From positions 114,892-178,891 of the forward strand of contig JAXLYJ010000005.1 of NCBI GenBank assembly GCA_046351515.1: 64,000 nucleotides of DNA, in the 5' to 3' direction. This stretch comes from Polyangiales bacterium (lineage in GTDB: Bacteria; Myxococcota_A; Polyangia; Polyangiales; Ga0077539). Of the stretch, positions 10,153-14,720 are shown one piece after another. Position 1 is the first letter of the stretch. Each line of letters opens with the position of its first letter. Position numbers and translations under genes: made by a program. The notes under the pieces were generated by a model. The model was not told the DNA's origin and made no database searches. It worked only from the letters and a program-made list of their open reading frames with translations.

Positions 10153-13100
10153 ATGAGCAGCGAGCCGGCTAACGAATCGCCTCCCGCGACGGCGAAGACC
10201 CCTCTTTCGAACGAGCTCGTGTACTCGCCAGAAGACCTCGAGACGCAGGTGCGTCGCGTGACGGTCTTTCACAAAGTGCTCACGGTGCTCGTCGCCGCGT
10301 TTACGCCGGTGCGGCTTGCGTTCGGCTACGTCTTCAACGACCCGGCGCCCAAATGGATGGCGTGGACCACGGCGCTGATGGGCGTGTTCATGTGGCGCGC
10401 GTGGGGACAGCTCAAGCGCCGCGAGCTCGAAGAAGCCTCGCTCTCGATGGCGCTCGGGTTCTGCTCGATCGCGCTGCCGTACGTGTGGGCGCTGCGCGAG
10501 CTGTTCTCGGTGATGGTGATCTTTCCGTTCGTGGTGGTGGCGATCGCGCTGCCGTACGTGCGGTCCGAGCGGCTGAAGTCTCTCATCGCGCTCGTGTGTG
10601 TGATCACCGCGATCAGCGTCTCGATGGGGCTGTTCTTTCCGAAGGCGCCGGGCGTCCCTGGGTGGTGGTGGCGCTTCGAAGTGTTCGCCTCGATCGCCGC
10701 GACCACGTCGCTGGTGATCATCTTGCTGCTGCAGTTCAGCGATCGTCTGCGCGATCACCTCCGGGCGATGCAGCGCACCAACGACGAGCTGCGCAACGCT
10801 CAGCGCGCGATCGAAGACCAGCGCAAGCAGCTCGAGACCGTGCTCGGCGGGCTCTCGGACGCGGTCGTCTCGTGCTCGATCGAGGGCGTCGTCGAATACG
10901 CCAACCACGGGTTCGAAGCGATCACCAAGATCCCTGTCAGCGACGCGATCGGAAAGAAGATCACCACCATCATCGAGTGCGATTCGCAGCTCATCAAAGC
11001 GTTCGACGACAACCCCGAGACGTCCGATCCGGGCTCGCGTCGGTCGTTGACCGTGCGCGAGATCGACGCCGAAGCGCGGCTGTATCGCAAGGACGACTCG
11101 CTCGTCGTCGAGGTCGCGCGCTCTCCGCTCGTGTCCGAAGCGGGCGTCACGCGCGGGGTGATCTTCGTGCTGCGAGACCTCTCTGAGCGTCGCAGGGCTG
11201 AGCAGCTCGAGCGTGACAAACGAGCAGCGGAAGAAGAAGCGCGCGCCAAGAGCACCTTCCTCGCGAACATGAGCCACGAGATCCGCACGCCCATGAACGC
11301 GGTGATCGGGATGACCTCGCTCTTGCACGACACCGAGCTCGACCCGTCGCAGCGCGAGCTGGTCGAGACCATTCGAACGAGCGGCGAACACCTGCTCATG
11401 GTCATCAACGACATCTTGGATTTCTCCAAGCTCGAGTCTGGCTCGTTCGAGCTCGAGGAGTACGACTTCGACCTCGCGCGCACCGCCGAGGAGTGCATCG
11501 AGCTGGTCGCTCCGCAGGCGGACAAGGGCTCGCTCGAGCTCATCTTCAACCCCGATCCGCAGCTGCCGGACCGCGTGCGCGGCGACGCCGGCCGCGTGCG
11601 ACAGATCCTCGTGAACCTGCTCGGCAACGCGGTGAAGTTCACGCACTCGGGCGAGGTCGAGCTGCGCGTGACGGCCGAGCCCATGACGGGCGGCCGCATG
11701 GCGGTGCAGTTCAGCGTGCGGGACACGGGCGTGGGCATCCCGAAGGACCGGTTTCACCGGCTGTTTCAGCGGTTTTCTCAGGTCGACGAGTCGACGACGC
11801 GACAGTTCGGCGGCACGGGCCTCGGCCTCGCGATCTCGCAGCGATTGGCCAACCTCATGGGCGGCGAGATCACGGTCGAGTCCGTGGTGGATCAGGGCTC
11901 GACGTTTACGTTGAGCGTTCCGTTTTTGCGGGCGCAGACCAAGGGGCCGACGCCGCAGTCGACCGCCTCGCTCGGGACGAAGCGCGCGCTCATCGTGGAT
12001 GACAACGCGACCAACCGCGCGGTGCTTCGCGCGCACTTGGAGGCGTGGGGGATGCGCGTCGTCGACACGCCTTCGCCCAAGCAAGCGCTCGCGATGATTC
12101 AGGGCGGAGAGCAGTTCGAGTTCATCCTGCTCGACTACCAGATGCCCGAGATGGACGGCGTGACGCTCGCCCGCGCGATTCGCGGCGCCATGAAGTCTCC
12201 GCCGCCGATGATGTTGCTCTCGTCGCTCGGCAGCATGCCGAAGCATCAGGTCGAGAAGGGGCTGTTCGCGGCGATCGTGAGCAAGCCCGTTCGACACTTT
12301 CGTTTGCTCGACGTCTTGCTCGAGCTCACGGGCGCCTCGCGAAGAGACACCACTGGTCCGCGCGGAACGACGACGGACCCCTCTCGCCTTCGCCCGCTGC
12401 GCATCTTGATCGCAGAGGACAGCCCGATGAACCAGCGCGTCGCGCTGCTGTTGCTCGGCAAATTCGGCTACACAGCGGACGTGGTCGGAAACGGCGCCGA
12501 GGCGCTCGAGGCGATCGAGCGTCGCGCGTACGACGTCGTGCTGATGGACGTGCAGATGCCCGTGATGGACGGGCTCGAGGCGGCGACGCGGCTGTGCAAG
12601 AGGGTTCCGGCGCGCGAAGAGCGGCCGACGCTCGTGGCGGTGACGGCGCACGCGATGCGCGGCGATCGAGAGCGGTGCCTCGAGGCGGGGATGGACGACT
12701 ATCTCACCAAGCCGCTGCGGCCCAACGAGCTGTTCGAGGTGCTCGCGAGGATCAAGCCGCGCGCGCAACGCAAAGAGAGCCCCGCGTCGGGCACGGGCGC
12801 CGTCAGCGCGCGAGCGGGAGCGCGAGCGTCGGACAAGCCGCCGGCAAAGAGCGAAGTATCCGAGGAAAAATCCAACGTGACCGCGGGTCAGTCCAACGCG
12901 GTCCCGGTGGTCGTCGCGGACGGCGCAGAGGGCGGGGTCGCGATCAGCGCGCTCGTCGAGCTGGCCGAGTCGATGGGCGGCGACAACGAGGCGGTCAAAG
13001 AGATGGTAGGAGCGTTTCTCGAGATGGCTCCAGCGCTGATCGAGGACATCAAGGCGGCGTTTGCGAAGCGGGACGCGGCGACGCTGCGGACTGCGGCGCA

Positions 13101-13293: not shown

Positions 13294-14720
13294 TCAAGTG
13301 CTGCGTTTCGTGTGCGCAACTCTTCAGTGACGGATCGAGCGCGTGTCCGCTGTGCGGCGCGGCGCTGTTGCCGTCGAGCGACGGGCCTCCGGTGGTGGAC
13401 GGTCGCTACCTGGTCGAGAAAGAGCTCGGCCGCGGTGGGGCGGGACGGGTGCTGCTCGCGAGGGACGTTCCGCTGCGGCGAAAAGTGGCGCTGAAGGTGA
13501 TGGCGAACTATCGGCCCGACCGCGAGTCGGTGCGCGGCTTCTATCGCGAGGCGAGCGCTCTCGCGAGCGTGCGCAGCGAGCACGTCGCGCAGGTGCACTC
13601 GTTTGGGTTGAGCGACGAGGGCTGCTTCTTCGCGATGGAGTTCATCGCGGGCAGCTCGCTCGCCTCGGTGATCGACGATCACCGAAGGGCAGCGGCGTTC
13701 ATCCCGAGGCACCGAGGCATCAGCGTGCTCAAGCAAGTGGCCAACGGGCTCGCGGCCGTGCACGCGCAAGGAGTGATTCACCGCGACGTGAAGCCCTCCA
13801 ACGTCGTGATCGAGCGCGACACCGGCCGCGCGGTGCTCGTGGACTTCGGCATCGCGATCCACAGCGCCGACGTCGATCAGCAAGACGAAGACGTCCTGCA
13901 CGGAACGCCCGCGTACATGGCCCCCGAGCAGATCATCACCGAGAACGGGATCACCTCGCTCGCCGACGTGTACGCGCTCGGGTGCACGGCGTTCGAAGTG
14001 CTCACGGGGCAGCTCCCGTTCAAAGCCGAGAGCATCCAGATGCTGCTCGCGAAGCAAGTCAGCGAGGCGCCGCCGCTGGTGTCCTCGGTGCGTCCCGAGC
14101 TGGGATTTCTCGACTCGATCATCGCTCGCGCGATGGCCAAAGAGCCGAGCGAGCGCTTCGAGAGCGCGCAGGCGTTCGCCTCGGCCCTCGACCACGCGCT
14201 GTTCACGATGACGCAAGACGACCTCGCCGAAGCGCGCTCTGCGGTCGCTGCCGCCGCGCGAAAGCCCGACGTGTTGGGCGGCGCGGCGGTGCGCGTGCTC
14301 GTGATCGACGACGACCCTGTGTTCGGCGTCTTCGCCTCGCGCGCGGTCAAGGCCGCGTTCGGAAACAAGCCCGAGAGCGTCGCCGTCACCGTCGTGCGCT
14401 CGGGGGCCGACGCGCTGGCGCTCGAAGGGGCGCTGCCCAACCTCGTCTTGCTCGACTATCACATGCCCGGGATGAGCGGCGTCGAGGTGCTCTCTGTGCT
14501 GCGCGAGCGGCCGGGCGGGCGCGAGATGCGCGTGATCGTCGCGAGCGGCAGCGCGGGGGCCGAGACGCTCGCGCGCTTCGCGCTGCTCGGCGTGACCGAG
14601 TTCGTGAAGAAGCCCGTCGACTTCGGCAGCTTCGTGCAGCGCCTGAAGGACATCGCGCGCGTCAACGGCTGGGTGCGCGCGCCGGACGAGACGATCATCG
14701 GACAGGCGAAGCCTGGCTGA
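13290..14720 (+). CDS. Ser/Thr protein kinase with N-terminal zinc-ribbon and C-terminal receiver (REC) domain
   Basis: GTG start at 13290 overlaps the HK stop (GTGA), with GGAGG 8 nt upstream. CxxC...CxxC, then kinase motifs GRGGAGRV, VALK, HRDVKPSN, DFG, TPAYMAPE. C-terminal REC with LLDYHMPGMSG. Confidence 0.85.
   Translation: MIKCCVSCAQLFSDGSSACPLCGAALLPSSDGPPVVDGRYLVEKELGRGGAGRVLLARDVPLRRKVALKVMANYRPDRESVRGFYREASALASVRSEHVAQVHSFGLSDEGCFFAMEFIAGSSLASVIDDHRRAAAFIPRHRGISVLKQVANGLAAVHAQGVIHRDVKPSNVVIERDTGRAVLVDFGIAIHSADVDQQDEDVLHGTPAYMAPEQIITENGITSLADVYALGCTAFEVLTGQLPFKAESIQMLLAKQVSEAPPLVSSVRPELGFLDSIIARAMAKEPSERFESAQAFASALDHALFTMTQDDLAEARSAVAAAARKPDVLGGAAVRVLVIDDDPVFGVFASRAVKAAFGNKPESVAVTVVRSGADALALEGALPNLVLLDYHMPGMSGVEVLSVLRERPGGREMRVIVASGSAGAETLARFALLGVTEFVKKPVDFGSFVQRLKDIARVNGWVRAPDETIIGQAKPG

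Follow-up and report, generated by a model that had tools for sequence, protein, structure and literature searches.

We describe a pair of adjacent genes in a 64,000-nucleotide stretch of a Polyangiales genome (contig JAXLYJ010000005.1, positions 114,892 to 178,891; hereafter the window, in whose coordinates all positions in this locus are given). The first gene encodes a hybrid histidine kinase (HK) that ends in a histidine phosphotransfer (HPt) domain, and the second a Hanks-type serine/threonine kinase (STK) that carries a receiver domain at its C-terminus. We believe that the two proteins form one unit, a His-Asp-His-Asp phosphorelay whose terminal regulator has a Hanks kinase as its output, and from the sequence comparisons below we put the probability of this reading at about two in three. 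We favour it because of the role of C-terminal HPt domains, the conserved pairing of the two genes, the linkage and fusion of HK and HPt modules to kinases of this type, the intact receiver pocket, and the split of input domains between the two proteins. An earlier annotation of the locus, made from the DNA letters alone (the original prediction), had suggested transfer from the HPt domain of the HK to the receiver of the STK, and comparative genomics, namely the pairing, the pocket, the HK/HPt linkage and the HPt fusions, now supports that suggestion well. The features on which the argument depends are listed here.

10153..13293, forward strand: gene for an unorthodox-type hybrid sensor HK of 1046 residues (open reading frame; GC content at third codon positions, GC3, 0.88; Pfam PAS, HisKA, HATPase_c, two Response_reg and Hpt)
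10225..10752, forward strand: N-terminal membrane-embedded domain of the HK, presumed sensor, about residues 25-200, with about six hydrophobic helices (Kyte-Doolittle)
10828..11196, forward strand: PAS domain, residues 226-348 (Pfam PAS_9/PAS/PAS_4)
11245..11925, forward strand: transmitter core, HisKA at residues 365-430 (phospho-His H375, nucleotides 11275-11277) and HATPase_c at residues 477-591 (Pfam)
11983..12327, forward strand: HK receiver 1, about residues 611-725, with D616/D617, D661, S691 and K711 (second Response_reg stretch)
12403..12744, forward strand: HK receiver 2, residues 751-864, with E755/D756, D799, T831 and K853 (best Pfam Response_reg stretch)
13000..13227, forward strand: HPt domain, residues 950-1025 (Pfam Hpt, E 3.6e-11, 43.6 bits against a cut-off of 24.6)
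13278..13282, forward strand: GGAGG, a Shine-Dalgarno-like motif in the 3' end of the HK gene, with a 7-nucleotide spacer to the GTG
13290..13293, forward strand: GTGA start/stop overlap (GTG 13290-13292, TGA 13291-13293)
13290..14720, forward strand: gene for the soluble STK-receiver protein of 476 residues (open reading frame; GC3 0.89; Pfam Pkinase and Response_reg)
13299..13358, forward strand: N-terminal Cys4 zinc-ribbon-like knuckle of the STK, C5/C8/C19/C22 (CxxC...CxxC; modelled as two small beta hairpins)
13410..14177, forward strand: Hanks-type kinase domain, residues 41-296 (Pfam Pkinase, E 1e-43)
14166..14246, forward strand: long connecting helix, residues 293-319, followed by a short low-confidence linker at about residues 320-333 (AlphaFold2 secondary structure and predicted local confidence, pLDDT)
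14295..14645, forward strand: C-terminal receiver of the STK, residues 336-452 (Pfam Response_reg, E 2e-14, 54 bits against a cut-off of 30.2)

Both open reading frames and their Pfam domains confirm the basic arrangement that had been predicted, a hybrid HK followed by an STK with a C-terminal receiver. GC content is 65-75% across the whole window, and the two genes have the codon-position signature that real genes show in this window of 68-70% GC (GC at first, second and third positions of 0.66/0.45/0.88 for the HK gene and 0.70/0.46/0.89 for the STK gene), a signature that was not found in the alternative open reading frames overlapping either of them. The HK gene begins with ATG, while the GTG of the STK gene at 13290 lies inside a longer open frame (12045..14720, forward strand). 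This GTG start is supported by the N-termini of homologues, which lie three to four residues ahead of the first conserved cysteine, and by P0001, a 476-residue protein from a Polyangiales metagenome-assembled genome (MAG) that is 100% identical to the STK over its full length and is annotated as a 'serine/threonine-protein kinase'. The raw sequence at the junction reads ...gcaGGAGGttcggtcGTGAtcaag..., and the overlap of the HK stop codon with the STK start codon as GTGA can be seen directly in it, as had been described. The GGAGG motif reported upstream of the GTG is also present; its spacer counts 7 nucleotides rather than 8, a matter of counting convention. From the overlap alone, translational coupling of the STK to the HK is plausible. 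Overlaps of four nucleotides are commonplace in bacterial operons, however, so this one is not remarkable in itself, and it is the conservation of the HK-STK gene pair, not the overlap as such, that is beyond chance expectation. A scan of positions 8600-15700 gave no promoter-like sites, and no terminator-like site in any intergenic gap.

The conservation of the pair is clear from the orthologous loci. By alignment, the STK orthologues compared have 84, 72, 58 and 57% identity, and in all four of their loci (L001, L002, L003 and L006) the same hybrid HK is encoded directly upstream on the same strand, so the adjacency of orthologues, whose absence would have told against the original prediction, is found throughout. 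One of these loci, L001, has the whole neighbourhood of the window, namely genes for a diacylglycerol kinase (DAGK)-like kinase, a glutathione S-transferase (GST), DUF2330, SelB and a glycoside hydrolase of family 1 (GH1). The flanks of L002, L003 and L006 are unrelated to those of the window, and the HK-STK pair itself is therefore the conserved unit. Two adjacent genes on the same strand that stay together while their flanks change are what is looked for in a cognate HK-regulator operon, and this is what we found. The four-nucleotide overlap, for which a check of conservation had also been proposed, recurs as ATGA in L002, L003 and L006 and is thus present in four of five loci counting the window, but L001 has a 40-nucleotide spacer with GAGGAG before its ATG and no overlap. 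We also considered two neighbours of the pair, the upstream gene for a DAGK-like lipid kinase and the downstream gene for a GST, as encoding parts or substrates of the system, and rejected them because they are common only to the window and its closest relative, L001.

The HK combines an H-box histidine, a HATPase_c domain, receiver aspartates and an HPt histidine in one polypeptide, which places it among the unorthodox hybrids. The phospho-accepting histidine of the HPt domain, H983, lies within AAHTLKPNAQMFGA (nucleotides 13099-13101), and H375, D661, K711, D799, T831, K853 and H983 are all invariant in five HK orthologues. The claim that the HK ends in an HPt domain is thus borne out both by the Pfam match over residues 950-1025 and by the invariance of H983. 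The second receiver and the approximately six transmembrane helices at the N-terminus had not been mentioned in the original prediction. HK receiver 1 also has a match to Receiver_CRE1 at residues 611-715. The highest NCBIfam scores for the protein were to TorS (479 bits against a cut-off of 676.5), BarA (460 against 890) and ArcB (378 against 838); as all NCBIfam scores are far under the equivalog cut-offs, the HK is of the unorthodox type but is not an orthologue of a named HK. Hydrophobic segments were found by the Kyte-Doolittle method at residues 42-60, 96-114, 118-136, 144-162 and 175-193. The membrane domain that contains them is the best-conserved region of the HK among its orthologues, with motifs such as FPFVVVAIALP and WWW, and it matches no Pfam family. 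This six-helix domain (10225-10752) may be an undescribed membrane-embedded sensor module. The HK orthologue in L006 is without the PAS domain.

The STK has no hydrophobic segment by hydropathy analysis, and its kinase domain has all of the catalytic motifs, namely G47xG49xxG52, K69, E87, H164-R165-D166, N171, D185-F186-G187 and A211-P212-E213, with K69, E87, H164, D166, N171 and D185 present in 95 of 95 homologues. A Foldseek search with the structural model of the STK returned PknB, PknA, PknF and Stk1 as the best matches, with target template modelling (TM) scores of 0.80-0.87, and a phmmer search of the Protein Data Bank (PDB) matched the kinase domain to PknE (E 7e-42). No structure of a kinase plus a receiver was found in the PDB, and the sequence and fold matches (PknB, PknE, PknA, PknF, StkP and Stk1) span the kinase domain only. 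In the clade of the window protein, the activation segment (13842-13910, DFG to GTP) is acidic and poor in serine and threonine (IAIHSADVDQQDEDVLH, with five D/E and one S), and in more distant family members the activation loops are short and varied. The acidic character of this segment hints that control could be exerted by means other than loop phosphorylation. The segment may also mimic a phosphorylated loop in a kinase of the RD type. The zinc-ribbon-like knuckle at the N-terminus is another feature absent from the original prediction; its CxxC...CxxC pattern is kept in approximately 53 of the 95 homologues, and its match to Zn_ribbon_3 is weak (E 0.0065, under the cut-off).

The receiver of the STK has D341/D342, D389 (nucleotides 14454-14456), S419, F438 and K441-P442, and the LLDYHMPGMSG motif, cited earlier as evidence that the protein ends in a receiver with a conserved aspartate, is present and contains D389. 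Lack of the acidic pocket residues would have spoken against the original prediction, but alignment of the 95 homologues showed that the pocket is complete in the STK receiver and conserved (D389 in 94, K441 in 95, S/T419 in 95, F438 in 89, D341 in 81 and D/E342 in 87). We considered a non-phosphorylatable pseudo-receiver and ruled it out, since the entire pocket is conserved; judged by its sequence, the protein appears to be neither a pseudokinase nor a pseudo-receiver. On helix alpha4 the receiver has a family-specific pair of residues, R429-F430, that is at least 90% conserved. The alpha4-beta5-alpha5 face is the usual receiver surface for output or dimerisation. An AlphaFold2 model of the STK, built on the 95-sequence alignment, has a mean pLDDT of 92.4 and a predicted TM-score (pTM) of 0.91. 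In this model, alternating strands and helices over residues 334-458 follow the (beta/alpha)5 pattern of a receiver, with mean pLDDT of approximately 89-97 in ten-residue blocks over residues 331-460, and the pTM suggests that the kinase and the receiver would have a defined mutual arrangement.

Proteins of this architecture form a large family. Nearly all of the top 120 database matches to the STK have both PF00069 and PF00072, and their source organisms are mostly Polyangiales, Sandaracinaceae, Myxococcaceae and other Myxococcota. To look more widely, we searched the linker-plus-receiver segment against 1.84 billion cluster representatives and considered the best 150 matches, approximately 70 of which are C-terminal receivers of about 39-51% identity in proteins of 420-500 residues or fragments thereof. 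The orthologous clade is a single 50% cluster among these representatives, and Pkinase and Response_reg occur together in all 43 of the cluster representatives that were scanned. Around alpha4-beta5 the family has a motif with the consensus RWRFxxLGVxDFxxKP, which in the window STK is LARFALLGVTEFVKKP, keeping R429, F430, G434, F438 and K441. We also scanned genome contigs with a full-length family alignment keyed on generic kinase motifs (HRDxKPxN, DFG), and among the matches listed, three of 80 loci span both domains (L007, L016 and L037). Two of these lie outside the Myxococcota: a kinase-REC-HD protein (HD_5; REC, receiver) in a MAG of the planctomycete Gemmata (L016, 6719-8926), and a kinase-REC-REC protein encoded right after a DAHL-domain HK in a MAG of the betaproteobacterial order Burkholderiales (L037, 5147-8905). 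In two of the cluster representatives, P0155 (HPt at residues 130-207) and P0233 (HPt at residues 41-126), the HPt domain, the kinase and the receiver are joined in this order in a single polypeptide, and by a Rosetta-stone argument these fusions indicate that HPt and kinase-receiver act together. One more family representative has a GGDEF domain and another a GAF domain.

The constancy of the fusion bears on another explanation, in which the STK receiver is a phosphate sink or competitor that tunes the relay by drawing or back-transferring phosphoryl groups on behalf of an unlinked regulator, with the kinase controlled separately, for example via the zinc ribbon. Sink receivers are established in other phosphorelays, such as CheY1 of Sinorhizobium, the two internal receivers of the HK suggest a branched or buffered relay, and the Cys4 knuckle at the N-terminus of the STK is a possible separate input. 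A pure sink, however, needs no covalent fusion to an intact kinase, and here at least 43 clusters, defined at 50% identity, have kept the fusion. In addition, the alpha4-beta5 output face has the family-specific residues R429, F430 and F438, and the pTM of the model suggests structurally coupled domains. We therefore consider a sink unlikely.

We also investigated the gene context of more distant family members, using the ten non-orthologous kinase-receiver loci (41-46% identity) whose context was usable. A gene for an HK, an HPt protein or both adjoins the kinase-receiver gene in seven of the ten. Metagenomes were scanned for the alpha4-beta5 motif, back-translated into a DNA pattern, and the neighbouring genes were typed with locally built hidden Markov models. 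The scan identified 27 loci specific to the family, many of which are short, and wherever the contig extends far enough the motif belongs to a receiver located C-terminal to a Hanks kinase. Ten of the 27 have HPt, HK or REC neighbours and nine are without any, the rest being too short to judge. The neighbours were as follows.

L004: GAF-HK gene upstream; single-domain HPt and REC genes downstream
L005: HPt-REC-GGDEF gene upstream; overlapping GAF-PAS-HK gene downstream
L087: HK gene upstream; a paralogue from the genome of L002
L090: HK gene upstream with a 4-nucleotide overlap; a paralogue from the genome of L001
L088: gene for an HPt protein of 147 residues overlapping the kinase start by 4 nucleotides; HATPase-REC gene overlapping the kinase end
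L091: gene for an HPt protein of 134 residues overlapping the kinase start by 4 nucleotides
L037: gene for a DAHL-HisKA-HATPase kinase immediately upstream
L089, L007 and L016: no two-component neighbours (orphans)
Metagenomic loci with HPt neighbours: L092, L095, L101 and L106
Metagenomic loci with HK neighbours: L095 and L114
Metagenomic loci with extra receiver genes: L098, L102, L109, L112 and L116

Two of the paralogous pairs have further neighbours of note. The HK and kinase-receiver genes of L087 (9677-12682) and L090 (4251-5195) lie beside SiaC and DUF6272 genes, and L087 additionally has a gene for a dCache-HAMP-SpoIIE phosphatase. These neighbourhoods resemble a SiaABC-like Ser/Thr partner-switching module, which is a possible downstream or parallel pathway.

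Gene context can also be read in a way that separates the two proteins of the window. Myxobacterial genomes have many orphan and non-cognate two-component genes, and some members of the kinase-receiver family are orphans themselves, so that the HK and the STK could be co-transcribed without being cognate, the HK passing its signal to an unlinked regulator and the kinase-receiver taking its phosphoryl groups from a different HK or from acetyl phosphate. Yet the pair persists as a unit while its flanks change, and chance adjacency in seven of ten independent paralogous loci is very unlikely (binomial P on the order of 1e-7, assuming from our own estimate that about 3-5% of genes encode HK or HPt proteins). 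We regard the non-cognate explanation as highly improbable.

The division of labour between the two proteins suggests a direction for the signal. In ArcB-, BarA-, TorS- and EvgS-type kinases, the C-terminal HPt domain donates to a cognate regulator that is usually encoded next door. All recognisable sensor domains of the system lie on the HK; on the STK, Pfam and hydropathy analysis recognised no input domain except the receiver and the small zinc ribbon. If the two proteins act as one phosphorelay, the membrane/PAS sensor would control autophosphorylation of H375, and the phosphoryl group would pass to an internal receiver of the HK at D799, D661 or both, from there to H983 of the C-terminal HPt domain, and finally to D389 of the kinase-fused receiver. 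Phosphorylation of D389 would switch the alpha4-beta5-alpha5 face of the receiver (R429/F430, the switch residues S419 and F438, and K441), and kinase activity could then be altered either via relief of an intramolecular contact or block or via dimerisation. Back-to-back dimers activate PknB-type kinases and offer a model for receiver-driven dimerisation of the STK. In this way, the His-Asp signal would become Ser/Thr phosphorylation of substrates. We infer the phosphotransfer and the path it takes, as well as the way in which it would alter kinase activity and the existence of such substrates, from the architecture and the comparisons above.

The same architecture might be thought to work in reverse. 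The STK would then phosphorylate Ser/Thr residues of the HK, or of the HK's receivers or HPt domain, and the fused receiver would serve mainly to dock the HK. The Myxococcus Ser/Thr kinases PktA5 and PktB8 work with the histidine kinases EspA and EspC, and published crosstalk between STKs and two-component systems in bacteria goes from the STK to the response regulator. The latter is described in reviews (PMC12471899, PMC6213207). A docking module, however, would not require a near-invariant receiver Asp, Lys and Ser/Thr, the sensor domains are found on the HK and not on the STK, and the existence of separate HPt genes and of fusions with HPt speaks for a His-to-Asp transfer to the STK receiver. 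Reversed flow is, in our view, quite unlikely. All three of these alternatives fit less well than a phosphorelay that ends in the STK with the near-invariance of the residues for phospho-acceptance, with the covalent joining of kinase and receiver, and with the association of the family with HPt.

Some observations nevertheless weigh against the phosphorelay. The HK has two receivers, and their roles are not separable by sequence. Three of the ten distant loci (L089, L007 and L016) and several metagenomic loci are orphans, and adjacency to an HK or HPt gene is accordingly frequent but not universal in the family. The kinase-receiver genes of L087, L090, L037 and L114 sit beside simple HKs without HPt domains, so this type of receiver does not strictly need an HPt donor. 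Lastly, the genes found near the pair in the window and in the orthologous loci include no FHA protein, no PP2C phosphatase, and no conserved candidate for a substrate or other partner.

Several characterized systems share part of this organization. The closest on the HK side are ArcB-ArcA, BarA-UvrY, TorS-TorR and EvgS-EvgA, in which, as in the window, HisKA, HATPase, receiver and HPt modules are combined in one membrane protein; in the window the gene for the partner receiver lies immediately downstream. The window HK differs from these kinases in having two receivers rather than one and a membrane domain that matches no described family, and its partner has a Hanks kinase as output, whereas ArcA, UvrY, TorR and EvgA have a DNA-binding domain. 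On the side of the regulator, the methylesterase CheB, the GGDEF proteins PleD and WspR, the HD-GYP protein RpfG and REC-PP2C phosphatases likewise have a canonical receiver with a full pocket fused to an enzyme, and are encoded beside their kinases. In most regulators with enzymatic output the receiver is N-terminal, but in the window STK the output precedes the receiver and is a Hanks-type protein kinase.

The window pair would work as a standard multistep phosphorelay ending in a regulator with enzymatic output. Its overall logic, from hybrid HK to HPt to receiver to control of a Ser/Thr kinase, is shared with the fungal relays that control MAP kinase kinase kinases (MAPKKKs), namely Sln1-Ypd1-Ssk1 acting on Ssk2/22 in budding yeast and Mpr1-Mcs4 acting on Wis4/Win1 in fission yeast (PMC3829895). 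The fungal receiver and kinase are separate polypeptides in a complex, while in the window a single polypeptide contains both, the kinase first and the receiver at its C-terminal side. The window kinase resembles bacterial PknB, PknE and PknF rather than a MAPKKK, and we claim no homology-based link to the fungal systems. Crosstalk that links Ser/Thr with His-Asp phosphorylation, as the window pair would, has been described in bacteria for PknH-DosR, Stk1-CovR/VraR/GraR and PrkC-WalR, together with fused kinases such as KdpD (PMC12471899). In PknH-DosR-type crosstalk the STK phosphorylates the regulator on Thr/Ser, but the architecture in the window implies that the two-component system would control the STK. 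Another point of comparison is rice CHARK, a CHASE-domain receptor Ser/Thr kinase with a eukaryotic ligand-binding role in which an STK domain replaces the HK domain (PMC7814049). As in the window, a Ser/Thr kinase domain is placed within an otherwise His-Asp pathway, but CHARK is not a receiver-gated kinase fed by an HPt domain.

Reviews of Hanks kinases (PMC6213207), two-component systems (PMC12471899) and phosphorelay regulation (PMC12189002) treat only crosstalk from STK to regulator and contain no receiver-fused kinase. Full-text searches and the reviews that we read yielded no account of a bacterial Ser/Thr kinase fused to a receiver and no experimentally studied member, although domain censuses may list the architecture, and the combination of Pkinase and Response_reg is already annotated automatically in public databases. 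The HK-STK system is not categorically new; such a system is what domain shuffling can be expected to yield in myxobacteria, with their wealth of signalling.

The window has other features that are separate from the gene pair. The single DUF2330 gene of the window, on the reverse strand (16200-17620), is split between two frames near 17129-17132: in tblastn searches with the L001 proteins, frame -1 covers residues from about 23 to 190 and frame -3 residues from about 190 to 520. The split reflects either a frameshift in a pseudogene or an error in the assembly, and the close relative L001 contains two tandem DUF2330 genes, both intact, in the corresponding position. On the forward strand, positions 24709-30177 encode a radical SAM enzyme, a 957-residue fusion of B12-binding, radical SAM and PCMT-like methyltransferase domains, and an AMP-binding ligase, all in the same orientation, with small open reading frames without Pfam matches upstream of them (21385-24676); this run may be a peptide- or metabolite-modification cluster. 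Adjacent reverse-strand genes at 35295-42246 encode a UvrD-like helicase (about 1200 residues) and a protein with a PD-(D/E)XK nuclease domain (about 1070 residues), which resemble an AddAB-type recombination complex. A second Hanks kinase, of 1212 residues and fused to an AAA_16 (STAND-type) ATPase, is encoded on the reverse strand at 43176-46817 and is typical of the expanded myxobacterial kinome.

The significance of the locus is bounded by the visibility of its architecture in existing databases and by its host, an uncultured Polyangiales bacterium represented by a MAG. Within these bounds, the locus and its family offer a compact case in which an HK would control a Ser/Thr kinase by way of phosphotransfer from HPt to receiver, comparable to the control of MAPKKKs by Ssk1 and Mcs4. 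By a narrow balance of probability, we think that Hanks kinases fused to receivers make up a widespread class of response regulators in bacteria, mainly in Myxococcota but also in Planctomycetota and Burkholderiales, through which His-Asp relays, typically via HPt domains, would directly switch Ser/Thr cascades. Such a class would be a prokaryotic and fused counterpart of the eukaryotic HK-HPt-response regulator-MAPKKK junction, and would run in the reverse of the only direction described so far between bacterial STKs and two-component systems. If this is true, a protein-kinase output class would join the response-regulator repertoire, and it would help to explain how the very large kinomes of myxobacteria are connected to environmental sensors.

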